Below the pieces are notes generated by a model. The model saw nothing but the letters and a program-made list of their open reading frames with translations. It did no database searches and was not told the origin of the DNA. Shown here in pieces: positions 9,725 through 48,777 of a DNA stretch of 64,000 bases (within the stretch, counting starts at the first letter, position 1; each line of letters opens with the position of its first letter). Location: NCBI GenBank assembly GCA_035524955.1, contig DATLFG010000072.1:66173-130172 (forward strand), read 5' to 3'. The translations under genes were made by a program, and so were the position numbers. The DNA comes from Candidatus Limnocylindria bacterium. GTDB taxonomy: Bacteria; Methylomirabilota; Methylomirabilia; Rokubacteriales; CSP1-6.

Positions 9725-9843
9725 AGAGGTCCTCCTGATCCTGCCGTGATGGCGCCTATATTGCCTCGACACCGGCCGGGCGCGAACGTGAAACGCGCGG
9801 ACGTTGCCACCTCCGCCCGATTCATGCTACACACGCGGGAGCG

Positions 9844-29415: not shown

Positions 29416-29521
29416 GCCGCGGGCCCGAATTACGTACCTGTACGAATAGACGAGGGCGCGGTCATGCGCGCAACGTTGCGGGCGGTGACGACGCGGTCCT
29501 CGGGAGTGTGCCCGCTCCGCC

Positions 29522-29908
29522 ATGCCTGATCCGGAGATTCGTCCGGCCACCATCCTGGTCGTCGAGGACGAGGAAGAAGTGCGCGCGCTCGCCCGCGACG
29601 TCCTCGAGATGAACGGGTACCGGGTGCTGGAGGCGCTCGACGTAGCGGACGCCACGCGGCTCTCCGAGACTCATCCCGGCACGATCGACCTGCTGATCAC
29701 CGACGTGGTGATGCCGGGCACGAGCGGCCCGGAGCTCGCGCGGCGGCTGCGCGTGCATCGCCCCGGGCTCCGCGTGCTCTGCATGTCGGGCTACCCGGAG
29801 AGCGCGGACCAGCGGATCGAGGGCGAGGCGGGCTGGAACGCCTGGCTGCAGAAGCCCTTCACGCCCGACGTCCTGATGGAAAAGGTGCGCGACTGCCTCA
29901 CCAGCTGA
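29522..29908 (+). CDS. Single-domain CheY-like response regulator
   Basis: ILVVEDEEEVRAL…DLLITDVVMPGTSGPELA…KPF is a receiver domain only. Confidence 0.8.
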   Translation: MPDPEIRPATILVVEDEEEVRALARDVLEMNGYRVLEALDVADATRLSETHPGTIDLLITDVVMPGTSGPELARRLRVHRPGLRVLCMSGYPESADQRIEGEAGWNAWLQKPFTPDVLMEKVRDCLTS

Positions 29909-33314: not shown

Positions 33315-34079
33315 GTGGCCGACGGGGCGCTGAAGGGGCGGGTGGCGGTGGTGACAGGTGGCAACGGGGGGATCGGCCTCGGCATGGCCCGGGGGTTCGC
33401 GGCCGCCGGCGCGGCGGTCGTGGTCTCGGGGCGCAACGCGGAGAAGAGCCGGGGTGCGGTCGCCGAGCTCACCAAGCTGGGCGCTTCGGCGGTGGCGATC
33501 GAGGCCGACGTGGCCGACGAGGCCGCGGTGAACGCGCTGGTGGGCGCCACCGTGGATCGCTTCGGCCGCCTCGACGTCCTCGTCAACAACGCGGGCATGA
33601 ACATCCGCAAGCCGGTGCACGAGCTGACTCTCGGGGAGTGGCGCCAGGTGCTCGACACCAACCTCACCAGCGCCTTCCTGACGAGCCGCGCGGTGTACCC
33701 GATCATGAAGAAGAACGGGGGCGGGAAGATCATCAACATCGGGTCCATGATGTCGATCTTCGGCGCCTCCTTCGCGCCCGCCTACGCCGCCTCCAAGGGC
33801 GGCATCGTCCAGCTCACCAAGGCGACCGCGTCGGCGTGGGCCCGCGACAACATCCAGGTCAACGCGGTGCTGCCCGGCTGGATCGACACCGAGCTCACCA
33901 CCAACGCGCGGCGTGAGGTCCAGGGCCTCCACGAGCGCGTGCTCGCGCGCACGCCCGCCGCGCGCTGGGGCGTGCCCGACGATCTCTCCGGCATCGCGGT
34001 GTTTCTCGGCGGTCCCGCCTCCGATTTCGTCACCGGTACCGCGATTCCCGTGGACGGAGGCTATTCGATCCAGGGCTGA
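33315..34079 (+). CDS. Short-chain dehydrogenase/reductase (FabG / gluconate-5-dehydrogenase-like)
   Basis: VTGGNGGIGLG…NNAG…SMMSIFGASFAPAYAASKGG…. SD GAGGAGG lies before the GTG. Confidence 0.85.
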   Translation: MADGALKGRVAVVTGGNGGIGLGMARGFAAAGAAVVVSGRNAEKSRGAVAELTKLGASAVAIEADVADEAAVNALVGATVDRFGRLDVLVNNAGMNIRKPVHELTLGEWRQVLDTNLTSAFLTSRAVYPIMKKNGGGKIINIGSMMSIFGASFAPAYAASKGGIVQLTKATASAWARDNIQVNAVLPGWIDTELTTNARREVQGLHERVLARTPAARWGVPDDLSGIAVFLGGPASDFVTGTAIPVDGGYSIQG

Positions 34080-34882: not shown

Positions 34883-35791
34883 ATGGCGAGCGAGCCCGCC
34901 GCGCCCGACTGGTATTCGCATGGACTCAACCGGGTGGCCTACTACCGGCTGGCGAGCGCCGCCGCGGCGGCGCTGCCTCGCTCCGCGCGCCTGCGGATCG
35001 CGCGCGCGCTCGGCCGGCTGCTCGCGCGCGCGCTGCCCGCGGAGCGCCGGGCGGTGCGGAGCAACCTCGGGCGCGTGCTCGCGGGATCGGGGCCCGCCCT
35101 GATCGAGGCGCAGGTGGCGGAGACGTTCGCCAACTTCGGGGCCTTCTTCGCGGATCTCCTCACCCTCAACCGCCGCCCGGGCGCTGACCTCCGCGCCTTC
35201 GTCGCGTCCGCCGACGGGGAGCATCACCTCGACGCGGGCCTCGTGTCCGGGCGGGGCGTGGTGCTGCTCACCGCACACCTCGGCAACTGGGAGCTCGCGG
35301 GGCGGCTCCTGTCGTCCCGCGGCGGCCGCACCGCCCACGTGGTGCTCTCCGCCGAGCAGGACGCCGCGCTCGAGCGTTACCTCCGTCTCGACGGCCCGCA
35401 GCTCCGCTTCGTGACGCGCCACCACGCCACCTCCACGCTCGGCCTGCTCGCCGCGCTCCGGCGCGCCGAGCTGGTGGCGATGCAGGCAGACCGGCCCAGC
35501 GGCGGGCGGGGCGACGCGATCGTGCCCTTCTTCGGCGAGCCCGCCGCGTTTCCGCTGGGGCCCTTCGTGCTGGCCCGGGCGGCGGGCGCGGCGGTGGTGC
35601 CCGCCTTCTGTGCGATGGCGCCGAGCGGCCGCTATCGGCTCGAGATCGATCCGCCGATCTGGGTCAAGCCCGGCGAGGAGCAGGCCGGCCTCACCACCGT
35701 GGTCGCCGCGCTGGAGCGCGTGATCCGCGCGCAGCCCACCCAGTGGTTCAACTTCTTCGACGCATGGAGCCCGCCCGGTGGCCACCCCTGA
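34883..35791 (+). CDS. LpxL/HtrB-family (lipid A biosynthesis lauroyl/myristoyl) acyltransferase
   Basis: LPLAT_LABLAT-like with an HX4E motif (TAHLGNWELAG) and …QADRPSGGRGDAIVPFFGEPAAFPLGPFVLA…. Confidence 0.75.
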   Translation: MASEPAAPDWYSHGLNRVAYYRLASAAAAALPRSARLRIARALGRLLARALPAERRAVRSNLGRVLAGSGPALIEAQVAETFANFGAFFADLLTLNRRPGADLRAFVASADGEHHLDAGLVSGRGVVLLTAHLGNWELAGRLLSSRGGRTAHVVLSAEQDAALERYLRLDGPQLRFVTRHHATSTLGLLAALRRAELVAMQADRPSGGRGDAIVPFFGEPAAFPLGPFVLARAAGAAVVPAFCAMAPSGRYRLEIDPPIWVKPGEEQAGLTTVVAALERVIRAQPTQWFNFFDAWSPPGGHP

Positions 35792-36959
35792 GCGCGTGGT
35801 GGTCGCCGCCGCCGGGGTCGTGACCCCGATCGGTCAGGACCTCGAGGCGTTCTGGTCCTCGCTGGTCACCGGGGCCTCGGGCATCTCGCAGATCGAGCGC
35901 GTGCCGGTGGCCGACCTGCGCGTGCAGCGGGGCGGCGAGGTCAAGAAGCTCGGCCGCATCAAGGACTGGCGCGGCGTGCCCGAGTGCCGCGCGAGCCGCC
36001 TCCTGATCGCGGCCGCCGACGACCTCTGCGCGCAGGCCGGCTTCCGCCCGCTCCCGCTGGATCCGGCGCGGGTTGGGGTGGTGGTCGGCACCGCCCTGGG
36101 CGGCGTGGAGGAGGGGGAGAAGGCGCTCGCGGGCGACCGCGGGCGTCGGCGGCTGCCGCAGGCGCTCTATGACGGCCCCGGCTGGGCGCTCGCGCGGTGG
36201 CTCGGCGCGCGCGGGCCGGTGATCACGGTGTCCACCGCGTGCGCCTCGGGCGCCACCGCGATGGCGGTCGGCGCCGATCTGCTGCGCGCGGGCGAGGCCG
36301 ACGCGGTGGTGGCGGGAGGCTACGACGCGCTCTGCCGGTTCGTGCTGCGCGGCTTCGACGCCCTCCGATCGCTCACGCGCGACGAGGTCCGGCCGTTCGA
36401 TCGCCGCCGCAGCGGCCTGCTTCTGGGCGAGGCGGGCGCGCTCGCCCTGCTGGTGCGCGAGCGGGACGCGCGGGGCCCGCGGCTCGGCACCCTGCTGGGT
36501 TACGGCAGCGCCAGCGACGGCTTCCACATCGCGGCGCCCGAGCCGGAGGGTCGCGGCCTCGAGCGGGCGATCCGCGCCGCGCTCGCCGACGCGCGCGTCT
36601 CGGCCGCGGACATCGACCTGGTGAGCGCGCACGGTACCGCCACCCCGCTCAACGACCCGATCGAGACGGCCGCGCTCAAGCGGGCGCTGGGGCGGCGGGC
36701 CCACGAGATCCCGATCAACTCCATCAAGGGTAGCCTGGGGCACACCATGGGCGCCGCCGCCGCGCTCGAGGCCTTCATGTGTCTGCTGTCGGCGCAGCGG
36801 GGCCTGATCCCGCCCACCCTGCACCTGGAGGAGCCCGATCCGGTGTGCGATCTCGACTACGTGCCGGGCCGGGCGCGTCCGGGGCGGCCCCGCGTCATGC
36901 TGAGCACGTCCATGGGGTTCGGCGGCTGCAACGGGGCCCTCGTGCTCGAGGCCGCCTGA
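35778..36959 (+). CDS. Beta-ketoacyl-ACP synthase (FabF/KAS II-like)
   Basis: Active-site TACASG, His motifs (HGTATP… and …GHTMGAAAAL…) and a C-terminal GFGGCNGALVLE. Confidence 0.85.
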   Translation: MATPERVVVAAAGVVTPIGQDLEAFWSSLVTGASGISQIERVPVADLRVQRGGEVKKLGRIKDWRGVPECRASRLLIAAADDLCAQAGFRPLPLDPARVGVVVGTALGGVEEGEKALAGDRGRRRLPQALYDGPGWALARWLGARGPVITVSTACASGATAMAVGADLLRAGEADAVVAGGYDALCRFVLRGFDALRSLTRDEVRPFDRRRSGLLLGEAGALALLVRERDARGPRLGTLLGYGSASDGFHIAAPEPEGRGLERAIRAALADARVSAADIDLVSAHGTATPLNDPIETAALKRALGRRAHEIPINSIKGSLGHTMGAAAALEAFMCLLSAQRGLIPPTLHLEEPDPVCDLDYVPGRARPGRPRVMLSTSMGFGGCNGALVLEAA

Positions 36960-37026
36960 TGGGCGCTCCCGCGATCCGGGGCCTCGGCGTCCTGTCCGGG
37001 GCAGAGGCAAGGTCCGCCACGACAGG

Positions 37027-37125
37027 GTCCGCGGACGGGGGGAGTGCGGGGGCCAATTGCGGCGATTCCACCCAGGTAAAGTCCGCGGACGGGGGGAGTG
37101 CGGGGGCCATTTCTGGGCCCCCGCA
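37027..37125. repeat. REP-like element family 1, two tandem copies (54-nt period). Core GGGAGTGCGGGGGCC-ATTTCT-GGCCCCCGCA.
   Basis: Copy 1 at 37027-37064 is degenerate in its right arm. Copy 2 at 37081-37125 is intact. Related copies lie at 45343-45413 and 48855-48886. Confidence 0.7.
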
Positions 37126-37129
37126 TACA

Positions 37130-37876
37130 ATGGGCCTAAAGAACGAAACGGTAGACCGCAAACTCGAGATTCTTACGCTCCCCCGCCCGGACCGCCCGGG
37201 CGACCGCTTCCGGCGGTCCACCCGGGAATGCCTCCTGGCCCTTGCGGCCGTGGACGCGATGCTTGAAGATGGGAAGGCCTCGCGCGAGGCGATCGCGGGC
37301 GAGCGGACGGCCCTGCTGTACGTGACCGCCGCGGCCTACGGCGCTGCCAACCGCGCGTTCATCGAGCGGCGGGGCGGGGTGATGCACTTCGCCTACACCG
37401 CGCCCGCTGTGGTGCCGGCGGAGGTGGCGATCGAGTTCGGGGTGGCGGGTCCGTACGGCATCCTGATCGGCGGCGCGCCCGCGACGCTCCGGGCCATCGC
37501 GCAGGCGGCCCGGCTGCTGGAGGCCGGCGGCTGCGATCGGGTGCTGGTGCTGGCGGTCGAGATCTTCGAGGAGTGCGCGGATCTCTACACGCGTCATCGC
37601 CGGGCCTATCGGTGGCCGCTGGTGGAGACCGCGGCGTGCCTGTGGCTGGAGCGCGGCGCGGGGGCGATCTCGCTCGAGTCCGCGCGCGGCGGCCGCCCGG
37701 CGGCCGGGCCGGCCGGCGGGGGCGAGCGCTTTGCGGCGGGCCCGCTCGCCGATCTGCGCGACTGGCGCGCGCGGGCGACGGCCGGTCCGGTCGAGCTGTC
37801 GGGACGCTGGCGGGGAGAGCATGCGCGGCTCCACTGGAGCCGAGAAATTGTCCACGCGCGCGGCAGCGCGGCGTGA
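37130..37876 (+). CDS. Small KS-like protein lacking the catalytic Cys (chain-length-factor-like partner). The start is ambiguous (37130 or 36959).
   Basis: …LLYVTAAAYGAANRAFIERRGGVMHFAYTAPAVVPAEVAIEFGVAGPYGILIGGAPATLRAIAQAARLLEAGGCDRVLVLAVE… is a thiolase-fold N-terminal half with GGAPA in place of TACAS. An in-frame ATG at 36959 overlaps the upstream TGA but would translate the REP copies. Confidence 0.55.
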   Translation: MGLKNETVDRKLEILTLPRPDRPGDRFRRSTRECLLALAAVDAMLEDGKASREAIAGERTALLYVTAAAYGAANRAFIERRGGVMHFAYTAPAVVPAEVAIEFGVAGPYGILIGGAPATLRAIAQAARLLEAGGCDRVLVLAVEIFEECADLYTRHRRAYRWPLVETAACLWLERGAGAISLESARGGRPAAGPAGGGERFAAGPLADLRDWRARATAGPVELSGRWRGEHARLHWSREIVHARGSAA

Positions 37877-37892: not shown

Positions 37893-38168
37893 ATGACCCA
37901 GAAGGAAGTCCTGGACGAGCTGAAGGGGCTCGTCGTCGAGCGGCTGAAGTTCGATCCGCGCCGGGCGGCCGAGATGACGCTCGAGACGACGCTGCCCAAG
38001 GGCGTCGACGGCTCGCTGGGCCTGGACTCGCTCGACTTCATCGAGCTGTCGGTCGCCATCGAGGAGCGCTTCGGGATCGTGATCGACGAGAGTCGCGATC
38101 TCACGGACGAGTTTCTCTCGCTCGACTCCCTCTCCCGGTTCATCCTGGCCAAGAACGGCCAGGCCTGA
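37893..38168 (+). CDS. Acyl carrier protein (dedicated)
   Basis: …GLDSLDFIELSVAIEERFG… carries the phosphopantetheine-attachment Ser in a DSL motif. 91 aa. Confidence 0.85.
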   Translation: MTQKEVLDELKGLVVERLKFDPRRAAEMTLETTLPKGVDGSLGLDSLDFIELSVAIEERFGIVIDESRDLTDEFLSLDSLSRFILAKNGQA

Positions 38169-38203: not shown

Positions 38204-39478
38204 ATGAGCCGGTCGGCGGCGCGCGACGGCCGGCCCGACGTCGTCGTCAGCGGCCTCGGGGTCGTGAGCCCCTACGGGGCCGGCGCGAAGAGCTTCTGGA
38301 GCGGGCTCGCCGCGGGTGCCTGCGCGATCAAGCCCATCACGGTCATCGAGACCGAGGGCTTCCGCTCGCGCATCGCCGCCGAGATCCCCGCCGAGGCCAT
38401 GAGCGCGCTGGGCGCCTCGCGCCGCCGCTCGCGCGCGGATCGGATCGCCCTCGCGGCGGCGCGCGAGGCCCTGGCCGACGCGGGCCTGGAGGGCGCCGCG
38501 CGCCGGGAGGCCGCCCTCCTGATCGGCGCGGTCGGGGGCGGCATGCTCGAGGGGGAGGACTGGTACTGGGAGGTCGCGCGCGGCCGCCCGTCGTCACGGA
38601 TGGGCGCGCTGCGCTCGATCCTGCCGTTCTCGCACGCCGAGACCCTCGGCTGGCGGCTCGGCCTCACCGGGCCCAAGGAGACGGTGGTCATGGCCTGTGC
38701 CTCCGGTGCCGCCTCGATCGCGCTGGGGGCCGATCTGATCCGTGGGGGCGTGACGCCCACCGCGCTGGTGGGCGGCGTGGATGCGCTGACCCACATCTGC
38801 TTCATGGGCTTCAACGCGCTCAAGCTGCTCGATCCCACCCCGTGCCGGCCCTTCGACCGTGAGCGGCGCGGCATGTCGATCGGGGAGGCCGCCGCCTTCC
38901 TGGTCATCGAGGACGCGGAGCACTGCCGGGCGCGGGGCGGGCGAGCGCACGCGCGCCTCGCCGGCTACGGCATGACCACCGACGCGTACCACGTCACCGC
39001 GCCGCATCCCGAAGGCGAGGGGATGATCCACGCGATGCGGCAGGCCCTGGCGGACGCCGGGCTCGCGGCGGCCGACATCGGCTACGTGAACGCCCACGGC
39101 ACCGGCACCCCGCAGAACGACCGCGCGGAGGCGCTCGCCCTCCGGCGCGTCTTCGGCGAGGGCGGGGTGCTGGTCAGCTCCACCAAGTCGCTGGTGGGCC
39201 ACACGATGGCGGCGGCGGGCAGCGTGGAGGCGGCCGCCACGATCCTGGCGCTCCAGCACGGGCTCCTGCCGCCGACCGCGAACCTCGACCAGGCGGATCC
39301 CGAGGTGCCCTTCGACTGCCTGCCGGGCGTCGCGCGTGCCGCCGAGGTGGCCGCCGCGCTGTCGAACTCGTTCGGCTTCGGCGGCCAGAACGTGAGCCTC
39401 GTGTTCGAGCTTGGCGAGGTGCACGTGCCGGGCGAGGCGCAGGCGAGCCGAGTGAATACAAGAGAGACGCTCCCGTGA
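38204..39478 (+). CDS. Beta-ketoacyl-ACP synthase II-like
   Basis: Active-site Cys (VVMACASGA), YHVTAPHPEG and NAHGTGTPQND. Confidence 0.85.
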   Translation: MSRSAARDGRPDVVVSGLGVVSPYGAGAKSFWSGLAAGACAIKPITVIETEGFRSRIAAEIPAEAMSALGASRRRSRADRIALAAAREALADAGLEGAARREAALLIGAVGGGMLEGEDWYWEVARGRPSSRMGALRSILPFSHAETLGWRLGLTGPKETVVMACASGAASIALGADLIRGGVTPTALVGGVDALTHICFMGFNALKLLDPTPCRPFDRERRGMSIGEAAAFLVIEDAEHCRARGGRAHARLAGYGMTTDAYHVTAPHPEGEGMIHAMRQALADAGLAAADIGYVNAHGTGTPQNDRAEALALRRVFGEGGVLVSSTKSLVGHTMAAAGSVEAAATILALQHGLLPPTANLDQADPEVPFDCLPGVARAAEVAAALSNSFGFGGQNVSLVFELGEVHVPGEAQASRVNTRETLP

Positions 39479-40614
39479 GCGCGGACCGCCGCGTCGTCGT
39501 CACCGGGATCGGCACCGTCAACGCCTCGACCGCCGGCGGCCGGGAAGCGCTGGCGCGGGCGCTGGCCCTCGGCCGCTCCGCGATCGCCCCGGTCCGCGCG
39601 TTCGACACTGCGGCGATGTCGAGCCGGCTCGCCGCCGAGGTGGACGAGGCGACGCTCGCCTCGCTCGTGGATCGCGACGCGGGCCGGCGGCTCTCGCGCA
39701 TCTGTCGCCTCGCCCTCGGAGCCTGCCTGCTCGCGGTGCGCGACGCGGACGTGGCGGGGGGGCCCGGGCTCGGTATCGTGGTGGGCACCGAGCACGGGGA
39801 CTTCACCTCGAGCCACGACTTCGCCCAGGGCTTCCTGCGCCGGGGCCCGGCCGGCCTCTCGCCGATGATTTTCCCCAATACCGTGATGAACACGATGGCC
39901 TCCATCGCGGCCATCGCGATCGGGGCAAAGGCCCCGTCGGTCACGGTGAACCAGGCCACCCTCGCGGGCGATCTCGCGGTCGTGCGCGGGGCGCGCCTGA
40001 TCACCGACGGTCACGCGGAGGCGGTGGTGGCGGGCGGCGTGGACGAGCTGTTCCACGACGTGTACGAGCGCCTGGCCCAGATGGGGGCGCTCTCCCCGAT
40101 GCGCGGCCGGGGCCAAGAGGGATGCCGGCCCTTCGCGGCCGATCACAACGGGCCGGTGCTGGGCGAGGGCGCCACGTTCCTGGTGCTGGAGGAGCGGGAG
40201 GCCGCGCGGGTGCGCGGCGCGCGGGTCATGGCCGAGATCACCGCGACCGCCTCGGGCAACGTGCCGGCCGCGCCCCACACCGGGCGGGCCGCGCGGGTCG
40301 ATGCCGGCTCCCCGGTGGCGCGCCTGATCCGCGGGCGCGGGGCGCCCGGCGTCGCGCGGTGCTACGGCGCCGGCAACGGCGACCCCGCGCTGGACGACTG
40401 GGAGCGCGCGCTGCTGGGCCGCGACCTGGCCGCGGCCGCCGCTCTGCTCCCACCGGTCTCGCTGGCCCCGCTCTTCGGGCAGCACGGCGGGCTCGGCGCG
40501 CTGCGCGTGGGCGCGGCCGCCCTGGACGCCTCACGCGGGACGGCGGCGGTACTCGTGCACGGCATCGCGCGCGGCGGCTGCCGGACCGCGATGATCGTGG
40601 AGCCCGCCCCTTGA
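39475..40614 (+). CDS. KS-beta / chain-length-factor-like protein with the active-site Cys replaced by Gln (KSQ)
   Basis: SVTVNQATLAGD where a KS has TACASG. Start overlaps the upstream stop. Typical type II PKS / aryl-polyene-like KS:CLF arrangement. Confidence 0.7.
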   Translation: MSADRRVVVTGIGTVNASTAGGREALARALALGRSAIAPVRAFDTAAMSSRLAAEVDEATLASLVDRDAGRRLSRICRLALGACLLAVRDADVAGGPGLGIVVGTEHGDFTSSHDFAQGFLRRGPAGLSPMIFPNTVMNTMASIAAIAIGAKAPSVTVNQATLAGDLAVVRGARLITDGHAEAVVAGGVDELFHDVYERLAQMGALSPMRGRGQEGCRPFAADHNGPVLGEGATFLVLEEREAARVRGARVMAEITATASGNVPAAPHTGRAARVDAGSPVARLIRGRGAPGVARCYGAGNGDPALDDWERALLGRDLAAAAALLPPVSLAPLFGQHGGLGALRVGAAALDASRGTAAVLVHGIARGGCRTAMIVEPAP

Positions 40615-42959
40615 ATCCGGTCAGCGAGCCCCTGATCGTCATCCCGGTTTTCAACGAGGCCCCCACCATCGGCGACATCGTGGAGCGCGCCCGGCTGCAC
40701 GGACCGGTGCTGGTGGTGGACGACGGCTCGACCGATCAGAGCGCCGCGGTGGCCGCGAGGGCCGGAGCCGAGGTGCTCTCGCTGGGCGGGCGCCGGGGCA
40801 AGGGCGCGGCGCTGCGACGCGCCTTCGCCGAGGGGCGGAGGCGCAAAGCCGAGTGGGTGGTGACCCTGGACGGCGACGGCCAGCACGATCCCGACGACAT
40901 CCCGCGGCTGCTCAAGGCGGCGATCGAGGAGCCGGGAGCCTTCGTGATCGGCGGGCGCCTGGGCGGGCTCGGGGCCGCGCCGACGCGGGTGATGCCCGCC
41001 GGGCGCCTCGCGGCCCTGCGCGTGGCGGGGTTCTTCATCGACTGGCTGGGCGGTGTCCCGGTCGCCGACACCCAGTCCGGCTTCCGCGTCTACCCGGCGC
41101 GCCTCCTCGCCACGGTGACGCCGCGTCACGGCGGATTCGTGCTGGAGAGCGAGATGCTGTTGCGCGCGGCCGCCCTGGGTTGGCGGGTCCTCGAGGTCCC
41201 GATCACGCCGATCCACTTCGAGGATCGCCGCAGCCGGTTCCGCCCGGCGCGCGACGGCCTCGCGGTCGGGGCCTTCCTGGCCGGCCGCATCGTGACGCGC
41301 TGGGCGCGCGAGAGCACCGCGGGCGCGCGCTACCTCCTCGGGATCTTCAGCCCGTCGCGCCTCCGGGCGCGACACCGCGAGATGTACGCGTTCGCGGCGC
41401 CGCATCGCGCTAACCCCTCCGGCTGGACGCTCGCCGTCGGCGCGTTCATCGCGGATCGCGCGATCCGGTCCGTCGAGGACGGCTGGCGCTCCCCGCACGC
41501 GCGCGGGCTGCGCCTGGCCGCGCTGGCCACCGCTGCGACCCCGCTCATGCTCGGACTCGCGCTGAGCCGGAGCGCGCTCGCCGCAGTCGGCATCGACTGG
41601 CTTGGCCCGGCGGCCCGGCGTCTCTATCGCCAGGAGGCCCTGGCGGGCACGCTGGAGGCGCCCGCGCGCCGGCGCGCCGCGGCCGCTCGTCCGGCGGACT
41701 ACGACGTGCTGGTGGTAGGCGGCGGTCCCGGCGGGTCGAGCGCGGCCACGTTCCTCTCGCGCGGCGGCCTGCGGGTGGCGGTGGCCGAGCGCGAGACCTT
41801 CCCGCGCTTCCACGTGGGCGAGTCGCTGCTGCCCGCCAACATGACGGTGCTCGAGCGCCTGGGCGTCCTCGACGAGGTGAAGGCGCACGGCTTCATCGTG
41901 AAGTCCGGCGCCTACTTCGCGGACCAGGAGATGGGCCTCGGCTACCAGTTCTTCTTCCGGGAGGGCAAGCCCTGGCCGCCCTACACCTACGAGGTGTCGC
42001 GCGGCGAGTTCGACAAGATCCTGCTCGATCACGCGGCCCGGCAGCCGAACGTGACCCTGCTCCAGCCCGCGAGCGTGGAGCGCGCGGCCTTCGACGACGA
42101 GGGCGTGACGGTGACCGTCTCCGAGGCCGCGGGGTCGCGCGAGATCCGCGCCCGCTTCCTGGTGGACGCGAGCGGGCGCGACGCGTTCATCGCCTCGCGG
42201 CACGGTCGGCGCCGCCCCATCGAGGGGCTGGGCAAGGTGGCGCTGTTCGCCCACTTCCGCGGCGGACGCCGCTGGCCCGGGAAGGAAGAGGGCAATATCC
42301 GCATCTTCATCTTCGAGCCGGGCTGGTTCTGGTACATCCCGTTCGTCAACGGCACGAGCAGCGTCGGCTGCGTGCTGCACGCGCGCACGGTGCGCGGGCG
42401 CGAGGGCAACCTGGAGCAGCTCTACGACTCGCTGATCGCCCGCTGCCAGGGGCTCGCCGAGGCGCTCGACGGCGCCCCCCGCATCACCGCGGTGCACCGC
42501 GCGGCGAACTTCTCGTACCGGACCGACCCGGCCATCGGCGACCGGTTCCTCTGCGTGGGCGACGCCATCGCGTTCGTGGATCCGATCTTCTCCTCCGGCG
42601 TCTACATCGCGACCCAGTCGGCGGAGCTCTCCTCGGCGGAGATCCTCAGGGCGTTCCGGGACAATCGCTTCGAGGCCCGCCGCTTCCGCGGCTACGAGCG
42701 CCGCATCCGCCGCGGGATGAAGCCCTTCCAGCGCTTCATCCGGAACTTCTACGATCCCTCGTTCATCGAGATGTTCCTCAAGCCGCGCGAGTTTGCGGGC
42801 ATGGTGGACAGCGTCACCGGGGTGCTGGCGGGCGGCGCCTTCCTCCGCTGCTCCCTCCGGATGCGGCTGTCGCTGGAGGTGTTCTTCACCGTCGTTCGCA
42901 TCAACCGCTGGGTCCGCCGGCGCCGGGGCCTGCCCACGGAATCCCGCTTCGAATGGTAG
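40611..42959 (+). CDS. Fusion protein: N-terminal GT2 polyprenyl-phosphate glycosyltransferase (ArnC/DPM1-like), a TM linker, and a C-terminal flavin-dependent halogenase-like domain
   Basis: GT2 region (…IVIPVFNEAPTIGDIVERA…VVDDGSTDQS…LDGDGQHDP…). Halogenase region (…YDVLVVGGGPGGSSAA…FHVGESLLP…EPGWFWYIPF…) with GxGxxG and WxWxIP motifs. One continuous frame. TTG start overlaps the upstream TGA. Confidence 0.65.
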   Translation: MNPVSEPLIVIPVFNEAPTIGDIVERARLHGPVLVVDDGSTDQSAAVAARAGAEVLSLGGRRGKGAALRRAFAEGRRRKAEWVVTLDGDGQHDPDDIPRLLKAAIEEPGAFVIGGRLGGLGAAPTRVMPAGRLAALRVAGFFIDWLGGVPVADTQSGFRVYPARLLATVTPRHGGFVLESEMLLRAAALGWRVLEVPITPIHFEDRRSRFRPARDGLAVGAFLAGRIVTRWARESTAGARYLLGIFSPSRLRARHREMYAFAAPHRANPSGWTLAVGAFIADRAIRSVEDGWRSPHARGLRLAALATAATPLMLGLALSRSALAAVGIDWLGPAARRLYRQEALAGTLEAPARRRAAAARPADYDVLVVGGGPGGSSAATFLSRGGLRVAVAERETFPRFHVGESLLPANMTVLERLGVLDEVKAHGFIVKSGAYFADQEMGLGYQFFFREGKPWPPYTYEVSRGEFDKILLDHAARQPNVTLLQPASVERAAFDDEGVTVTVSEAAGSREIRARFLVDASGRDAFIASRHGRRRPIEGLGKVALFAHFRGGRRWPGKEEGNIRIFIFEPGWFWYIPFVNGTSSVGCVLHARTVRGREGNLEQLYDSLIARCQGLAEALDGAPRITAVHRAANFSYRTDPAIGDRFLCVGDAIAFVDPIFSSGVYIATQSAELSSAEILRAFRDNRFEARRFRGYERRIRRGMKPFQRFIRNFYDPSFIEMFLKPREFAGMVDSVTGVLAGGAFLRCSLRMRLSLEVFFTVVRINRWVRRRRGLPTESRFEW

Positions 42960-42972
42960 GTGCCCGCCTCGC

Positions 42973-44163
42973 ATGGTAGACGTGCGCCGGCTCCTCCCGC
43001 GGGGCTACCTCTTCACGGTGCTGGGTATCGCGGTCGGCGTGGCCGGGCTCGTCGCGCTGGGCGCCATGGCGGAGCGCATCACGCGCTTCATCGACGGGGG
43101 CGACCGCTTCGTGCTTGGCCAGATCTCGGTGGCCGGCGAGGGCATGGGCATGGGCACCGGCTTCACCGCGGGCGGCCTGTTGCGCGCGTCCAAGATCGAG
43201 GAGATCGCGCGGGTATCCGGGGTGGCCGCGGTACAGGGGCAGGTGATGCTGCCGCTCAATCCCACCACGTCGCAGTTCCTGACCCTCACCCAGGAGCTGA
43301 TCCTGGGCGTGGATCCGGCGGTGCGCGTCTCCAACCGCGAGTTCCGCGAGCTCCCGGTGCGCGACGGGCGCGCCCTGCGCGAAGGCGATCGCGGGGTGGT
43401 GGTGGTCGGCGCCGACTTCGCGGCCTCGCGCGGCCTGCGGGCGGGCGGGACGCTCGACCTGGCGACCGGCCGGAGCTTCCAGGTGGTGGGGGTGCTCGAC
43501 AAGACGCTCACCGCGCCCGATCGCTTCGCGATCGTGCCCCTCGACGACGCCCGCGATCTCTGGCTGCGGCGCGACCCGCTGCTCGTGCAGGTCTTCACGG
43601 GGGGCGCGGGCGGCCTCGGCCGCCGCGACCTGAACACCGGCGCGGCGGTGGCGTGGGCGGACGGGGTGGATCCGGACGCGCTCGCGCGCCGCATCCAGGC
43701 CGAGGTGCCCGGCCTCAACGTCACGATCCCCGGTGAGCTGAGCCGCCTGCTGCGGCAGTCCACCGCGTTCTTCTCGGCGCTGCTCTTCGGCATCGGGGTG
43801 CTGGGGCTCGTGATCGGCGGGCTCTCGCTCTCCAACACGGTGACGGCGGCGGTCTTCGAGCGTATCCGCGACTTCGGCATCAAGCGGGCGCTCGGCGCCA
43901 CTGACGGGCAGCTCCTGCGCGAGATCCTGGGCGAGGCCCTCGGCGTGTCCATGTCGGGGGGACTGCTCGGGGTAGGGCTGGCCCTCGCGGTCGGCACCCT
44001 GGTGGACGCGCGGGGCGGAGGCCAGCAGCTCTTCCTCTTCTCGCCCCGCCTGCTCGGCTTCGCGCTCGCCTTCTCGATCGTCCTGGGCGGACTCGCCGCC
44101 ACCTACGCCACCCTCCGGATCGTGCGGCTGTCGCCCGCCGAGGCCATCCGGCGCGGAGCCTGA
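42973..44163 (+). CDS. ABC transporter permease, FtsX/MacB/LolE family
   Basis: N-terminal TM, a large periplasmic domain and a C-terminal 3-TM FtsX-like region (…LGATDGQLLREIL…). Confidence 0.8.
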   Translation: MVDVRRLLPRGYLFTVLGIAVGVAGLVALGAMAERITRFIDGGDRFVLGQISVAGEGMGMGTGFTAGGLLRASKIEEIARVSGVAAVQGQVMLPLNPTTSQFLTLTQELILGVDPAVRVSNREFRELPVRDGRALREGDRGVVVVGADFAASRGLRAGGTLDLATGRSFQVVGVLDKTLTAPDRFAIVPLDDARDLWLRRDPLLVQVFTGGAGGLGRRDLNTGAAVAWADGVDPDALARRIQAEVPGLNVTIPGELSRLLRQSTAFFSALLFGIGVLGLVIGGLSLSNTVTAAVFERIRDFGIKRALGATDGQLLREILGEALGVSMSGGLLGVGLALAVGTLVDARGGGQQLFLFSPRLLGFALAFSIVLGGLAATYATLRIVRLSPAEAIRRGA

Positions 44164-44164
44164 G

Positions 44165-44857
44165 GTGGTCGTCCGCGCGCGCGGGCTCAGCAAGACGTTC
44201 CGGGGTCCCGACGGCCGGCCGGTTCCGGTGCTCCGCGGCGTGGACGTGGCCGTGGAGGCGGGCGAGTTCGTGGCGGTGGCGGGGCCGTCCGGCTGCGGCA
44301 AGACCACCCTGCTGAACCTGCTCGGCCTGCTCGAGCCGGCCGACGCGGGCGAGATCTGGCTCGACGAGGTCTGTGTGAATCGGCTCTCGCGCCGGGCCCA
44401 GTGCGGGGTGCGGGGGCGCTCGATCGGCTACGTGTTCCAGTCGTTCCTGCTGATCGCCGGCCTCACCGCGCTCGAGAACGTGCTGCTCGCCGCACGCTAC
44501 GTCGGGCGTCCGCGGCCGTCGGCGCTGGCGGAGGCGCGGGTCCTGATGGAGCGGCTCGGGGTCGCCCACCGCGCGGACCACTACCCGGCGCAGCTCTCGG
44601 GCGGCGAGCAGCAGCGGGTGGCCTATTGCCGGGCGGTGCTCAACACTCCGCCGCTCGTGCTGGCCGACGAGCCGACCGGCAACCTGGACGAAGGCCACGC
44701 CGCGGTGATCCTGGCGGAGTTGCGCGCGCTCTGCCGCGGGCGTGGGACCTCGGTCATCCTGGTCACGCATCGGGCCGATGCGGCCGCCCGCGCGGACCGC
44801 GCCCTGCGCCTGCGCGAGGGTCGGCTCGAAGCGTCGGGAGGCGACGGGCCCGCATGA
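44165..44857 (+). CDS. ABC transporter ATP-binding protein (MacB/LolD-like)
   Basis: Walker A (GPSGCGKTT), LSGGEQQRVA signature and Walker B (LVLADEPTGNLD). Confidence 0.85.
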   Translation: MVVRARGLSKTFRGPDGRPVPVLRGVDVAVEAGEFVAVAGPSGCGKTTLLNLLGLLEPADAGEIWLDEVCVNRLSRRAQCGVRGRSIGYVFQSFLLIAGLTALENVLLAARYVGRPRPSALAEARVLMERLGVAHRADHYPAQLSGGEQQRVAYCRAVLNTPPLVLADEPTGNLDEGHAAVILAELRALCRGRGTSVILVTHRADAAARADRALRLREGRLEASGGDGPA

Positions 44858-44873
44858 TCGGCCGCCCCCTCTA

Positions 44874-46715
44874 GTGGGGAGGCTTCGCGGCGCCGGCGTC
44901 GCCGTCCTCCTGGTCGTGGCCCTGGCCGCGGCGCTGCTCGCCCCGGGCCTGGGCCGGGCGCCCTTCGACGATCCGGGCGAAGGCCAGCACGCGGAGATCG
45001 CCCGGGAGATGCTGGGTGGGAGCTGGCTCACGCCGCGCCTGAACGGTGTGCGCTACTTCGACAAGCCCCCGTTGCTCTACTGGCTAACCGGGATCTCCTT
45101 CTCGCTCTTCGGCTTGACCGAAGGCGCCGCGCGCCTGGCCCCTCTGCTGGGCGCGCTGCTCGCCGTGGCGGCCACGGCGGTGCTGGGCGCCAGGTTGCTG
45201 GGACCCGCCGGCGGCGCGCTGGCTGGCCTGGCGCTCTTGTCCTGCGCCCTCTTCGCGGCGTTTGCGCGGTACGTGCGGCCGGAGAGCCTGTTCGTGGCCG
45301 CTATGGCCTGGGGCTTTACGGGGCTTCTTGTGCATATGCGGGGGCCCAACTCTCTTAATCCTCTCGCCTCGCCGGCGCCTGCGGCTCGCCAAGCGGGCCC
45401 CCGCACTCCCCCAACCGCGGACGCTCGTTCCGGCGCTGCCTGGGCCTTGCTCGGCTGCGCGGCGCTCGGGGTCGCGGCGCTCGCCAAGGATCCGCTGGGG
45501 TTGATCGGGCCGCTGGCGGCGATCGCGGTCGCGGCGGGGCTGGCGGGGCGGCTGCGGCCGGTGCGCGCCTGGCTGCCGCCGCTCGGGGTGGCGCTCCTCG
45601 TCATCATCGGGTTCGGCTGGTACGTGGTGGCCGCGCTGATCGAGCCCGCGTTCCTCTGGTACACGGTGGTCGACAACCATCTGCTGAACGTCGCGCGGAT
45701 GCGGCAGTTCCCCGACGAGGACGTGCCGCTCTCCGCGCTCGAGTTCCTCACCGCGGCCTCCTTCGGGGCCTTTCCCTGGATCGTGGCGGCCGCGGTGGCG
45801 GTGGGTGCGCTCATCCGCGGGCGCGCCTGGCGTGATCCCGCGGAGCTGCCGTGGGTCGCTCTGGCCCTCTGGATGGTGGGCGTGCTCGCGCTCTTCACGA
45901 TCTCGCCGTTCAAGCTGCCGCACTACGGCCTGCCCGCCTATCCCGCGCTGGCCCTGCTCGCGGCACGCGCGTGGCGCGACGCCGCGCCGCGGCCGCGCGG
46001 GCTGATCGCGGCCCACCTGGTACTCTTCGCCCTCGCGGGCGCGGGCTGCGCCTGGGCCGCGGCGGGCGACGGGCAGGCGTTCACCGAGGCGGTGTTCGGC
46101 GTCTCCGACGTGTACTCGCGGAAGGAGGCGGCGTGGGGACAGGCGTCGCCCTATCCCGCGTGGTCGGCGCTCCAGCCGCTGGTGAGGTGGGCGGCGGTGG
46201 TGCTGCTCGCGGGCGCGGCGGGTCTGGCGGCGGCGGCGGCGCGCCGCTCGGCGCGCGCCGGGGCCTGGACGGTGGCGGCGGCGATGCTCCTGCTCACGCC
46301 GGTGGTGGCGATGGGGCTCACGGTGACCTCGTCGGCCCGCGCGGTCACCGTGATGGCGGCGGAGATCCGGGCCCGGCTGGCGCCGGACGACGTGCTCGTG
46401 CTCGAGGGCCCCATCGAGAACGCGGGCGCGGTGGAATTCTACTCGGGGCGCCGGCCGGCCCTGCTCGACGCCTCCCGCAGCGTGCTCGGCATCGGGGCCA
46501 CCTTCGCGGACGCGGCGGACACCTTCTGGAGCGCTCCGCGTTTCGCGGAAGCGTGGGCGTCGTCGCGACCGCCCTATCTGCTGACCACGCGCGAGCCGGG
46601 ACGGGGCATCGTGGCCTCCCTGCCGCCCGCGAGCGCCCGGTTGCTCTTCGCCCACAACGGCCGCTGGCTCTACGGCCGCGCCCCCGCCGGTGACGCGGCG
46701 CCGGCCTCGCGCTGA
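44874..46715 (+). CDS. GT-C family glycosyltransferase (GT39/GT83 ArnT/PMT-like; a lipid-linked sugar is the predicted donor)
   Basis: …RYFDKPPLLYWLTGISFSLFG… is an ArnT-like motif. Multi-TM N-terminus plus a periplasmic C-terminal domain. GTG start. Confidence 0.75.
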   Translation: MGRLRGAGVAVLLVVALAAALLAPGLGRAPFDDPGEGQHAEIAREMLGGSWLTPRLNGVRYFDKPPLLYWLTGISFSLFGLTEGAARLAPLLGALLAVAATAVLGARLLGPAGGALAGLALLSCALFAAFARYVRPESLFVAAMAWGFTGLLVHMRGPNSLNPLASPAPAARQAGPRTPPTADARSGAAWALLGCAALGVAALAKDPLGLIGPLAAIAVAAGLAGRLRPVRAWLPPLGVALLVIIGFGWYVVAALIEPAFLWYTVVDNHLLNVARMRQFPDEDVPLSALEFLTAASFGAFPWIVAAAVAVGALIRGRAWRDPAELPWVALALWMVGVLALFTISPFKLPHYGLPAYPALALLAARAWRDAAPRPRGLIAAHLVLFALAGAGCAWAAAGDGQAFTEAVFGVSDVYSRKEAAWGQASPYPAWSALQPLVRWAAVVLLAGAAGLAAAAARRSARAGAWTVAAAMLLLTPVVAMGLTVTSSARAVTVMAAEIRARLAPDDVLVLEGPIENAGAVEFYSGRRPALLDASRSVLGIGATFADAADTFWSAPRFAEAWASSRPPYLLTTREPGRGIVASLPPASARLLFAHNGRWLYGRAPAGDAAPASR

Positions 46716-46718
46716 CCG

Positions 46719-47309
46719 GTGCTGACCGAGCTGATCGGCCACTTCACGTATCCGGGGGTGTTCCTGGTTCTGCTCGCCACCGGCCTGGGCCTGCCGATCC
46801 CGGAGGAGCTGCCGATCGTCATCGCGGCCATGATGTCGCGCTGGGAGGTGATGCACTGGTGGGGCGCGCTCCTGTCCTGCCTGGGCGGCGTGCTGGCCGG
46901 CGACATGCTGCTCTACGCGGTGGGCCGGCAGTTTGGCCGGCGCATCCTCGAGTGGCCCGCCGCGCGGCGCATCCTGACTCCGAAGCGGGAGGCGCGGGTC
47001 ATGGAGGCCTACCATCGCCACGGCCTCAAGTTCTTGATCCTGGCTCGGCTCGTGATGGGGCTGCGGGCGGCCGCCTTCCTGACCGCGGGGCTGGTCCGGG
47101 TGCCGTTCCTCCGCTTCCTCCTGGTGGACGTCGCCGCGGTGCTGGTGAGCGTCACGCTAGCGTTCGGCCTGGCCTACGCGGTCGCGGACTCGGTGGCGGT
47201 GGCGCTCGCCCACGTGCACGAGCTGCAGCTCTGGGTCGGCGGCGCCGTCCTGCTGGCCGCGGCCGCATGGATCCTCGTCCTGTGGCGCCGCCACCGCCGG
47301 CGGGGCTAG
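46719..47309 (+). CDS. DedA/TVP38-family membrane protein
   Basis: …VFLVLLATGLGLPIPEELPIVIAA…HGLKFLILARLVMGLRAAAFLTAG… are DedA hallmarks. Confidence 0.8.
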   Translation: MLTELIGHFTYPGVFLVLLATGLGLPIPEELPIVIAAMMSRWEVMHWWGALLSCLGGVLAGDMLLYAVGRQFGRRILEWPAARRILTPKREARVMEAYHRHGLKFLILARLVMGLRAAAFLTAGLVRVPFLRFLLVDVAAVLVSVTLAFGLAYAVADSVAVALAHVHELQLWVGGAVLLAAAAWILVLWRRHRRRG

Positions 47310-47358: not shown

Positions 47359-48777
47359 GTGACCGACTACCAGCGTACGCTGTTTCTCCATCCGCCCGCG
47401 GTGGCCGGCTTCGACGGCGGCGCGGGCTCGCGCTACCAGGCCCGGCGCGAGATCCGGTCCTTCTGGTACCCGACCTGGCTGGCCCAGCCGGCCGCGCTGG
47501 TGCCGGGCTCGAGGCTCGTGGACGCCCCGCCGGACGGCCTCACCCTGGACGACGTGCTGCCGCTGGCCCGGGGCTACGACCTCTGCGTCATGCACACCAG
47601 CACGCCGTCGTTCGCCTCGGACGTGCGCGTGGCCGAGGCGCTCAAGGCCGAGAACCCCGCGCTCATCATCGGGCTCGTGGGGGCCGCGGTGGCGGTGGCT
47701 CCGGAGGCCTCGCTCCGGGCGAGCGCCGCGCTCTCCTTCGCGGCCCGGAGCGAGTTCGACTTCACGATCCAGGAGGTGGCTCAGGGCCGGCGCTTCGCCG
47801 ACGTCCGCGGGCTCTCCTACCGGGTCAACGGCCATGTGGAGCACACGCCGGAGCGTCCCCCGCTCGAGAACATGGACGCGCTGCCCTTCGTGACGCCGAT
47901 CTACAAGCGCGACCTCACCGTCGAGCACTACGCGATCGGCTACCTCCAGCACCCCTACGTGTCGCTCTACACCGGGCGCGGCTGCCGCTCCCGGTGTACC
48001 TTCTGCCTCTGGCCGCAGACGGTGGGGGGGCAGCGCTATCGCACCCGCAGCACCGAGCACGTGGCCGAGGAGATGGCGCAGGCCGCGCGGATGTTCCCGC
48101 AGGTGCGCGAGTTCTTCTTCGACGACGACACGTTCACCGACGACCTGCCCCGCGCGGAGGCCATCGCGAAGCGGCTCGGGCGGCTCGGGGTCACCTGGTC
48201 GGTCAACGCCAAGGCCAACGTGCCCTACGCGACCCTGAAGGTGCTCAAGGACAACGGCCTCCGTCTCCTCCTGGTGGGCTACGAGTCAGGCAACCAGGCC
48301 ATCCTGAACAACGTCAAGAAGGGCGTGCGCCTCGACGTGGCACGGCGGTTCACCCGCGGCGCCAAGTCGCTCGGCATCGCCGTCCACGGCACCTTCATCC
48401 TGGGCCTACCCGGCGAGACGCCCGAGACCATCGCGGAGACCATCCGCTTCGCCACCGAGATCGACCCCGACACCATCCAGGTCTCGCTGGCCGCGCCGTA
48501 TCCGGGCACCGCGCTCTACGAGGAGGCGCAGCGCAACGGCTGGCTCGAGTCCGACGAGCTGGTGGACGGGGCCGGGGTCCAGGTGAGCGCGCTCGGCTAC
48601 CCGCATCTCTCGCGCCCCGAGATCTTCCGCTCGGTGGACCAGTTCTACCGCCGCTTTTACTTCCGCCCCCGCAAGATGCTCTCGCTGGGCTCCGAGATGC
48701 TCCGCGACCGCCGGGTGATGAAGCGCCGTCTGTCCGAGGGCCGCGAGTTCCTGCGGTTCCTCCGCACCCGCCGCTAG
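47359..48777 (+). CDS. B12-binding radical SAM protein (HpnJ-like class B)
   Basis: N-terminal B12-binding domain (…AGFDGGAGSRYQARREIRSFWYPTWLAQPAA…). Radical-SAM cluster motif (…GRGCRSRCTFCLWPQ…). Strongly resembles the hopanoid-associated HpnJ family, from memory. Confidence 0.75.
   Translation: MTDYQRTLFLHPPAVAGFDGGAGSRYQARREIRSFWYPTWLAQPAALVPGSRLVDAPPDGLTLDDVLPLARGYDLCVMHTSTPSFASDVRVAEALKAENPALIIGLVGAAVAVAPEASLRASAALSFAARSEFDFTIQEVAQGRRFADVRGLSYRVNGHVEHTPERPPLENMDALPFVTPIYKRDLTVEHYAIGYLQHPYVSLYTGRGCRSRCTFCLWPQTVGGQRYRTRSTEHVAEEMAQAARMFPQVREFFFDDDTFTDDLPRAEAIAKRLGRLGVTWSVNAKANVPYATLKVLKDNGLRLLLVGYESGNQAILNNVKKGVRLDVARRFTRGAKSLGIAVHGTFILGLPGETPETIAETIRFATEIDPDTIQVSLAAPYPGTALYEEAQRNGWLESDELVDGAGVQVSALGYPHLSRPEIFRSVDQFYRRFYFRPRKMLSLGSEMLRDRRVMKRRLSEGREFLRFLRTRR

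Follow-up and report, generated by a model that had tools for sequence, protein, structure and literature searches.

Aryl-polyene (APE) and xanthomonadin systems make lipid-anchored products that are exported to the envelope. In 2013, Wang et al. described a conserved pair of ketosynthase (KS) and chain-length factor (CLF) genes whose neighbors are a dolichyl-phosphate-mannose-synthase-like gene and, in a large number of genomes, a halogenase gene (PMC3691225). The arc cluster of Azoarcus lists a glycosyltransferase, an acyltransferase, and a halogenase. For ApeJ, Grammbitter et al. proposed that the protein links a glycerol-phosphate lipid to GalNAc via a sugar-1-phosphate and then acylates the sugar with a polyene bound to the acyl carrier protein (ACP) (bioRxiv 10.1101/2020.12.19.423268). 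Here, we describe a locus that we liken to these systems by its genes and in which the glycosyltransferase and the halogenase are parts of one protein. It lies in a 64,000-nucleotide stretch of contig DATLFG010000072.1 (assembly GCA_035524955.1), referred to below as the window, where a single gene encodes a family 2 glycosyltransferase (GT2) followed by a flavin-dependent halogenase domain (Table 1). An earlier note on this DNA had described the gene as a fusion of an ArnC-like GT2 to a halogenase-like domain.

The fusion gene and its homologs

Biologically, the fusion open reading frame (ORF) most sensibly begins with the TTG at 40611, so that start and stop codon (TGA, 40612-40614) of the fusion gene and the KS-like gene before it overlap as TTGA; this preceding gene, CLF2, is translationally coupled to the fusion gene. 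In the encoded protein, Pfam Glycos_transf_2 (PF00535) matches amino acids (aa) 9-118 with 72 bits vs a cutoff of 23.3, and Trp_halogenase/FAD_binding_3 matches aa 363-715 (PF04820, 100.5 bits vs a cutoff of 21). Since the GC content of the window is 72-76%, the third codon position is a sensitive indicator of the reading frame. Scored in segments of 90 nucleotides (nt) in the frame of the fusion ORF, third-position GC is 0.87-1.00 in every segment from codon 6 to 756, including those over aa 216-366, and falls to 0.4-0.67 just outside the ORF on both sides. The coding signal thus stays in a single frame throughout, and the frame does not shift within the gene.

A search of 5.8 billion proteins returned 311 homologs, of which the best 120 clusters (90% clustering) were examined. 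These 120 share 73-99% identity with the window protein and are nearly all 766-787 aa long, with few truncated entries; all of them contain both PF00535 and PF04820, except two of the truncated ones. The homologs come from JGI, ENA, NCBI, and Logan assemblies, and among the best 120 of 311 those with a name are nearly all metagenome-assembled genomes (MAGs) of Candidatus Rokuibacteriota or Methylomirabilota. Their public records carry automatic names only ('tryptophan 7-halogenase'). The exact window protein is NCBI HUP36593.1, encoded on a 131.6-kb contig, and belongs to a 90% cluster of 16 members drawn from all four sources. At 50% clustering (1.84 billion representatives), the full-length fusion forms essentially one cluster, and the next-closest proteins are halogenases (424-431 aa, 49-56% identity) and glycosyltransferase proteins (353-377 aa, 46-58% identity) that each stand alone.

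The same single ORF would result if a sequencing or assembly error had falsely joined two separate genes. Many relatives do consist of two genes with a 4-bp overlap, in which a single-base error could mimic a fusion, and obvious frameshift errors are present in some long-read MAGs (L023, L035, L039, and L040 in our numbering of loci). Against this, the same fused frame occurs in at least 120 protein clusters from four data sources and in 16 species-level genomes, where the junction peptide is conserved; the exact protein recurs across JGI, ENA, NCBI, and Logan in its 16-member cluster; and the third-position GC is unbroken over the junction. Because the fused frame recurs in independent assemblies, we regard the artefact as refuted, with next to no probability left to it. 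We conclude that the fusion truly exists and is conserved among soil Rokubacteria; the uninterrupted ORF from GT2 to halogenase that the earlier note reported is confirmed, with third-position GC and full-length homologs in agreement.

No distant, independent GT2–halogenase fusions were found among the other long halogenase-containing proteins inspected. Other multi-domain halogenases of metagenomic origin (P0218, P0237, and P0161) have partners that are not GT2: an ABC-ATPase joined to a halogenase (706 aa), a halogenase joined to an SCP2 lipid-transfer domain (520 aa), and a 738-aa protein in which a 312-aa N-terminal region of no known family precedes the halogenase.

Several contigs that bear the cluster (64-91% identity) are labeled Deferrimicrobiaceae, Dormiibacterota, Nitrosotalea, Acidoferrum, Verrucomicrobiia, or Nitrosocosmicus (L003, L005, L007, L012, L013, L019, and L021). 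Together with the window record itself, which is labeled Candidatus Limnocylindria, these contigs are probably mis-binned in soil MAG catalogs. Given its relatives, the window contig is most likely rokubacterial.

Fused, split, and halogenase-free loci

Scanning one genome per GTDB species yielded 79 loci, whose states were assigned by ORF and BLAST analysis. The glycosyltransferase, a helical segment, and the halogenase share one ORF in 16 species-level genomes (L003-L018; the helical segment was detected in all but L015). In about 20 loci, the two enzymes are encoded by separate genes (L001, L019-L026, L028, L029, L031-L034, L041, L043, L044, and L046), and in 9 of the 14 split junctions inspected the glycosyltransferase stop overlaps the halogenase start as ATGA or TGATG. 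Five further loci are free of the halogenase (L002, L036, L037, L038, and L049); here the glycosyltransferase gene keeps the helical segment and is followed directly by the ABC transporter. The halogenase is therefore an optional module of the cluster. In L019, L020, L021, L022, and L040, a second halogenase paralog, 58-62% identical to the window domain, stands directly after the first, which suggests multiple halogenations. Many cluster genes of the long-read MAG loci L023, L035, L039, and L040 are broken into several frames, which indicates indel errors of assembly, and these loci were not used for fused or split calls.

The fusion junction, which has about 15 variable residues, corresponds to the site of the stop–start overlap in the split relatives, and it is predicted to be disordered at aa 350-358, where its predicted local distance difference test (pLDDT) score is below 50. 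In a neighbor-joining tree of halogenase domains, the fused forms fall into two clades with split forms between them: a main clade that includes the window, and L016 with L018. The junction peptide is conserved within the main fused clade and differs between the two clades. The fusion would have originated by loss of the 4-bp stop–start overlap between two translationally coupled genes, apparently twice. A deltaproteobacterial MAG (L042) has the halogenase and the GT2 in the reverse order, again with a 4-bp overlap.

The halogenase domain

The GxGxxG and WxWxIP motifs on which the earlier note had based its halogenase call are both present, as GGGPGG (aa 370-375, nt 41718-41735) and within GWFWYIP (aa 571-577), and both are conserved. 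In W572-F-W574-Y-I576-P577 (nt 42324-42341), the two Trp and the Pro are found in 41 of 41 relatives that contain the halogenase and the Ile in 40 of 41. The alignment check for the catalytic Lys and Glu, with absence of the Lys named as grounds for a non-halogenating flavoprotein, comes out in favor of a halogenase. The catalytic lysine of this enzyme class (K79 in PrnA, K76 in CndH, K73 in PltA) is present as K431 (IVKSGAYF; nt 41901-41903), which aligns with K76 of CndH and with the corresponding Lys of PltA and ChlB4 and is invariant in all 41 halogenase-containing relatives. E404, the Glu of the GES motif (HVGESLLP; nt 41820-41822), aligns with ChlB4, CndH, and PltA and is kept in 42 of 43 sequences. 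In enzymes of the CmlS/CndH type, the GES Glu lies near the active site. A motif of the FxxPxxSxG type is present as GDAxAFVDPIFSSG (aa 650-663), and GDAxAFxDPxFSSG is nearly invariant in the relatives. The catalytic motif set of the halogenase half is thus intact.

The best sequence matches of this half in the PDB are ChlB4, CndH, PltA, CmlS, and Mpy16 (E=1e-54 to 1e-58); with FasV and 3nix included, the range is E=1e-50 to 1e-58. In the AlphaFold2 (AF2) model, the fold of this half matches Mpy16, ChlB4, PltA, 3nix, and Bmp2 with target-normalized TM-scores of 0.82-0.90. The domain carries, in addition, a conserved amphipathic C-terminal tail (aa 716-782). With the NCBIfam CmlS equivalog model (NF033113), it reaches 199.7 bits vs a cutoff of 900; it is related to CmlS but is an ortholog neither of CmlS nor of any other characterized enzyme.

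We also considered that the C-terminal domain is a flavin monooxygenase or reductase acting on a lipid, either a hydroxylase like QhpG or LodB or an enzyme like geranylgeranyl reductase. NCBIfam matches below threshold exist to QhpG (153 bits), LodB (106 bits), and the geranylgeranyl reductase family (106 bits), the score with the only halogenase equivalog model, CmlS, is as far below its cutoff as stated above, and the WxWxIP motif also occurs in some non-halogenating relatives, a point that the earlier note had raised. Yet the PDB matches down to E=1e-22 are all halogenases, except the uncharacterized Cytophaga flavoprotein 3nix, and the monooxygenase and reductase structures match far worse, both by sequence (E=1e-11 or worse) and by fold (17-20% identity). 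The invariant catalytic Lys, combined with GES, WxWxIP, and FxxPxxSxG, also speaks for a halogenase, so that a monooxygenase or reductase is improbable. By every sequence criterion, the domain is a bona fide member of the variant-B group of flavin-dependent halogenases.

The glycosyltransferase and its helical extension

The GT-A catalytic domain is delimited by Pfam, NCBIfam, an alignment with ArnC, AF2, and Foldseek. It contains the motifs DDGSTD (aa 37-42) and TQSGFR (aa 154-159), as well as a DxDxQ motif, D87-G-D89-G-Q91-H (nt 40869-40883), that is conserved in the relatives; in the ArnC alignment, LDGDGQHDPDD of the window stands opposite LDADLQNPPEE. As in the halogenase half, the catalytic motifs are intact. 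The designation 'ArnC-like' agrees with the PDB sequence matches, which are ArnC (E=4e-8) and dolichyl-phosphate-mannose synthase (DPMS), and with Foldseek, where a model of the glycosyltransferase with its extension finds ArnC and the Pyrococcus DPMS first, followed by GpgS/MpgS and GtrB. The Foldseek alignments with ArnC and DPMS extend over 320-380 columns, but with a root-mean-square deviation of 10-19 Å. The nearest NCBIfam models all score below their equivalog cutoffs (PpgS 90.4/370, AglJ 89.7/325, and DPhHxTase 53/375).

In the AF2 model of the glycosyltransferase with its extension (pLDDT 89, predicted TM-score (pTM) 0.83), the catalytic domain is followed by helices at aa 212-244, 248-265, 269-292, and 295-324, plus two short ones. 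The mean pLDDT of the whole-protein model is 87.7. The earlier note had regarded this region as a hydrophobic linker between the two enzymes. The strings it quoted, GAFLAGRIVTRW (aa 220-231) and LMLGLALS (aa 312-319), are present, but the hydrophobicity is weak, and the segment proves to be a conserved four-helix C-terminal extension of the glycosyltransferase that also occurs in the halogenase-free relatives L002, L036, and L049. Because it is conserved in the stand-alone glycosyltransferase proteins of clusters that have no halogenase, the helical segment belongs to the glycosyltransferase. The GT2 proteins of proteobacterial APE-type clusters have about 250 aa and are without it.

Within the extension, the Kyte-Doolittle mean over 19 aa peaks at 1.65 (aa 300-318). 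The neighboring MacB, PMT_2, DedA, and 8-TM proteins, the last with eight predicted transmembrane (TM) helices, reach maxima of 2.0-2.8. A classical transmembrane linker is not supported, the hydropathy being below that of these true membrane proteins of the window. The extension is amphipathic and weakly hydrophobic and is probably a module of the membrane interface.

Organization of the gene cluster

The cluster around the fusion gene (Table 1) begins with the 318-aa membrane protein, which is conserved in many rokubacterial loci and for which no match was found in the local Pfam-A, NCBIfam, or PDB-profile searches. The same searches gave no match for the lipoprotein. Many of its alignment columns are invariant, including C73, H156, H202, and D223 (numbering of the 266-aa translation from nt 34078), and the precomputed Pfam marks of its homolog in L002 list only DUF8321/DUF8322; possibly, it serves the pathway as a Cys-His-Asp enzyme in the periplasm. 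The cluster has two KS genes, each followed by a KS-like gene. CLF1, the partner of KS1, has a low-complexity N-terminus of Gly, Ser, and Ala and is represented by two small ORFs in some relatives. In CLF2, the Gln at the position of the KS active-site Cys is a hallmark of chain-length factors.

Table 1. Features of the fusion gene and of the surrounding cluster (positions in the window; SDR, short-chain dehydrogenase/reductase)
Feature	Position	Strand	Remarks
8-TM membrane protein, 318 aa	32215-33171	+	two similar halves, ~4+4 hydrophobic helices
SDR ketoreductase, FabG/ApeQ-like	33315-34079	+	
Conserved lipoprotein, 257 aa	34105-34878	+	signal peptide, lipobox LLAVVVSGCAS
LpxL-like (Lip_A_acyltrans) acyltransferase	34883-35791	+	homologous to the C-terminal half of ApeJ
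KS1	35778-36959	+	active-site Cys kept
CLF1, degenerate KS-like	36959-37876	+	Gly at the Cys position; without the KS C-terminal domain
ACP	37896-38168	+	35% identity to E. coli ApeE
KS2	38204-39478	+	active-site Cys (ACASG); 38% identical to E. coli ApeO
CLF2, KS-like	39475-40614	+	Gln for the active-site Cys (TVNQATLAG)
GT2–halogenase fusion gene	40611-42959	+	782 codons + stop; 782-aa protein
GT-A (GT2) catalytic domain	40623-41243	+	aa 5-211
Four-helix C-terminal extension of the glycosyltransferase	41244-41645	+	aa 212-345
Fusion junction	41646-41696	+	aa 346-362, Ala/Pro/Arg-rich
Flavin-dependent halogenase domain	41697-42956	+	aa 363-782
MacB/FtsX-type ABC permease	42973-44163	+	directly downstream of the fusion gene
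ABC ATPase	44165-44857	+	MacB-type pair kept in every related cluster
ArnT/PMT_2-type GT-C membrane glycosyltransferase	44742-46715	+	start uncertain
DedA/VTT protein	46719-47309	+	
HpnJ, radical SAM	47359-48777	+	768 bits vs equivalog cutoff 577.6
SerA	49021-50607	+	

Downstream of the ABC transporter, the PMT_2 gene follows the cluster in all rokubacterial loci, and the DedA gene is present in the main fused clade. In nearly all rokubacterial loci that are long enough, the gene after PMT_2 (or after DedA, where there is one) encodes HpnJ, a hopanoid cyclitol-ether enzyme. HpnJ may have a functional link to the lipid cluster or may, as SerA does, simply share its synteny; a preprint on hopanoid transport makes no mention of this cluster.

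Two further groups of forward-strand genes are seen upstream. A few kb away, 26040-29908 encodes a 904-aa histidine kinase with four GAF domains, a LuxR-type response regulator, and a stand-alone receiver domain. About 21-25 kb upstream, 7139-11373 encodes an FAD_binding_3 protein, a methyltransferase of the mycolic-acid cyclopropane-synthase family (302 bits), and an AMP-binding ligase; the comparison of related loci covered 10-kb flanks, which end short of this group.

Relation to aryl-polyene and xanthomonadin clusters

Outside the Rokubacteria, the nearest relatives of the two halves (39-46% identity for GT2, 36-40% for the halogenase) stand beside KS, SDR, and LPLAT genes in Proteobacteria. 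In Pseudoxanthomonas (L070), which has a xanthomonadin-type cluster, the order is KS, a Ketoacyl-synt_2 CLF, and GT2, then ketoreductase (KR), MMPL, LolA_3, and Lip_A_acyltrans. The order KS2, CLF2 with its Gln, and GT2 in the window is the KS-CLF-GT2 order of L070 and of Lysobacter ORF17-16-15. A locus from Burkholderiales (L056) contains KS, CLF, a 190-aa ORF with a faint ApeP-like trace (E=0.12), KR, halogenase, MipA, and GT2, and in L042 the halogenase–GT2 pair is followed by ACP, LPLAT, and KS. Parts of the rokubacterial cluster are thus homologous to APE and xanthomonadin clusters.

We searched the window by tblastn with all 18 Ape proteins of the E. coli CFT073 ape cluster (L082). They match only the KS, KR, ACP, GT2, and LpxL-like acyltransferase genes: ApeO/R match the KS, ApeQ the KR, and ApeE the ACP. 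The N-terminal half of ApeJ matches the window GT2 with 25% identity over 273 aa (E=3e-17), and its C-terminal half (aa 362-552) matches the LpxL-like gene with 32% over 193 aa (E=6e-16). ApeJ of E. coli is therefore itself a fusion, of a GT2 and an LpxL-like acyltransferase, whose counterparts in the window are separate genes (40611-41300 and 34883-35791). As the partner in ApeJ is another anchoring enzyme, this type of GT2 is a recurrent fusion partner. The identity is low, so the orthology of ApeJ and the window GT2 is not established. The reaction proposed for ApeJ is of the same class as that of ArnC and DPMS, which act on a lipid phosphate. In ApeJ (encoded at L082 41213-42889), the C-terminal acyltransferase domain was missed by the local Pfam search.

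E. coli ApeI and ApeP have no tblastn match in the whole window; the Pfam models used for the cluster proteins do detect the E. coli dehydratases. ApeH has no match in the window either, and the sole AMP-binding gene (9844-11373) lies about 22 kb upstream of 32215, outside the conserved cluster. As several defining features are missing, we do not class the cluster as an aryl-polyene cluster, although its core and anchoring enzymes are APE-like.

Proposed function of the fusion protein

We consider it rather probable that the protein is a bifunctional enzyme of the membrane surface in a lipid pathway that resembles type II polyketide synthases or fatty acid synthases (PKS/FAS) and is related to APE and xanthomonadin biosynthesis, where optional halogenation is coupled to glycolipid anchoring. 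Coupling of halogenation to a membrane-associated glycosyl or lipid step, as the earlier note had it, would be a reasonable interpretation of these genes. We infer the following scheme for the pathway, including what its enzymes act on, how the steps are ordered, the association with the membrane, and what is made. The GT2 would transfer a sugar from a nucleotide sugar to a lipid phosphate on the cytoplasmic face of the membrane, the acceptor being either a lipid of the phosphatidyl type, such as that put forward for ApeJ, or the polyprenyl phosphate that ArnC uses, and the four-helix extension would hold the GT2 at the membrane surface. Supplied with O2, halide, and FADH2 that an unlinked reductase provides, the halogenase would form a hypohalous species at K431, which would attack an electron-rich group either on the ACP-bound chain made by KS, CLF, KR, and ACP or on the lipid-linked product. 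The LpxL-like acyltransferase would then join this chain and the glycolipid, and export of the product would fall to the ABC system of the MacB type, with possible additional periplasmic glycosylation by PMT_2 and DedA. The fusion would fix a 1:1 ratio of the two enzymes and place halogenation next to the anchoring step.

Several observations weigh against this scheme. No match to an ApeI/ApeP-like or FabA dehydratase was found in any cluster protein, and the conserved cluster genes include no aryl-starter enzyme (XanB2, UbiC, or TAL) and no acyl-AMP ligase; because these dehydratases and aryl-starter enzymes are missing, a polyene or aryl product is not demonstrated and there is no obvious electron-rich substrate for the halogenase. 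Nor were a thioesterase, LolA, or MMPL found among the conserved rokubacterial genes, and the scan of the cluster turned up no gene for a flavin reductase. The orientation of the domains in the full AF2 model is unreliable (pTM 0.61), and membrane insertion of the four-helix extension is uncertain, because it is far less hydrophobic than the TM helices of the neighboring proteins. A one-base change suffices to fuse overlapping genes and could be selectively neutral; that the fusion arose twice is provisional, as the neighbor-joining tree carries no support values.

In an alternative, the fusion is functionally neutral and the two proteins became one only through loss of the 4-bp overlap: the GT2 would be an ArnC-type polyprenyl-phosphate sugar synthase that feeds the ArnT-like GT-C, DedA would handle the carrier lipid, and the halogenase would separately tailor an ACP-bound polyketide. 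The neighboring PMT_2 and DedA genes fit the role of GT2 as a source of polyprenyl-phosphate-sugar donor, which tells against the anchoring scheme; in sequence and in structure, the GT2 and its extension match ArnC and DPMS best, an extension that the shorter GT2s of proteobacterial APE clusters lack; and the split and halogenase-less clusters evidently function. On the other hand, the closest GT2s outside the phylum are those of APE and xanthomonadin clusters (40-46% identity vs 18-27% to ArnC), the glycosyltransferase and the halogenase are coupled again, in reverse order, in another phylum (L042), and the fusion has apparently arisen twice and is stable over 16 species. We therefore judge a neutral fusion to be rather unlikely, though not negligible; it and the coupled anchoring scheme are not fully exclusive, as both amount to the transfer of a sugar onto a lipid phosphate.

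More speculative, and in our view distinctly doubtful, is a new class of halogenated envelope glycolipids. Here, the membrane-tethered halogenase would act on a substrate linked to a lipid, rather than to a carrier protein, at the head-group site of the GT2, followed by periplasmic glycosylation by the ArnT-like GT-C, MacB-type export, and a possible link to hopanoid head groups via HpnJ.

Comparison with known systems

The earlier note knew of no described fusion of this kind, and in the literature searched we found no paper describing a GT2–halogenase fusion; the pairing of the two enzymes as such is not new, having been known since 2013 (PMC3691225). Nor was a paper on a halogenase of Rokubacteria found in the same literature, where Rokubacteria and aryl polyenes came up together only in passing. 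Under the coupled anchoring scheme, the fusion would serve as a 'Rosetta stone', suggesting that the halogenase of APE/xanthomonadin-like pathways works with the lipid-anchoring glycosyltransferase, probably at the membrane. A stable single-chain GT2–halogenase is also a defined construct in which the stage and the carrier of pigment halogenation can be tested. The cluster is conserved across an uncultured soil phylum, and its fused, split, doubled, and halogenase-free versions form a series whose comparison can help to identify what is made. To enzyme engineers, it would offer a flavin-dependent halogenase naturally joined to a probable membrane-interface module, a combination for which we found no precedent among the characterized examples or in the literature searched.

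Among the variant-B halogenases (CndH, PltA, Mpy16, Bmp2, ChlB4, and CmlS), the window domain shares the fold, about 30% identity, and all catalytic motifs, and the ACP in its genomic context fits the carrier-protein-tethered substrates of this group. It differs in its extra amphipathic tail (aa 716-782) and in its fusion, since none of these six is fused to a glycosyltransferase or a membrane-type module.

With ArnC, DPMS, GtrB, and PpgS, the glycosyltransferase half shares the DxDxQ motif and an architecture in which predicted helices come C-terminal to a GT-A domain; these enzymes are also its best PDB sequence and fold matches, and a gene for an ArnT-like GT-C lies close by, a parallel to the Arn system. 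In contrast, the identity is only 18-27%, the scores stay under the NCBIfam equivalog cutoffs, the hydrophobicity of the helices falls well short of that of TM helices, and the context is a PKS/FAS-like cluster instead of lipid A or O-antigen modification.

ApeJ resembles the fusion protein in having an N-terminal GT2 with D-x-D-G-Q-H that is fused to another enzyme of the pathway. The partner in ApeJ is the LpxL-like acyltransferase, which is a separate gene in the window (34883-35791), where the partner is the halogenase.

At the level of the whole cluster, the features shared with APE and xanthomonadin systems are a KS with a Gln-type CLF, ACP, and KR, a DPMS-like GT2 right after KS-CLF, an LpxL/LPLAT-type acyltransferase, and an optional adjoining flavin-dependent halogenase. 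In Rokubacteria, however, the GT2 has the four-helix extension and forms one protein with the halogenase, the KS/CLF-like pair occurs twice, a MacB-type ABC system takes the place of LolA/MMPL/RND, and an ArnT-like GT-C, DedA, and HpnJ follow. The surprise is moderate, because the components are ordinary and losing a 4-bp overlap is enough to fuse the genes. Neither the parts nor their adjacency nor the pathway family is new, and the single-gene GT2–halogenase is an interesting variant of them rather than a new kind of system.

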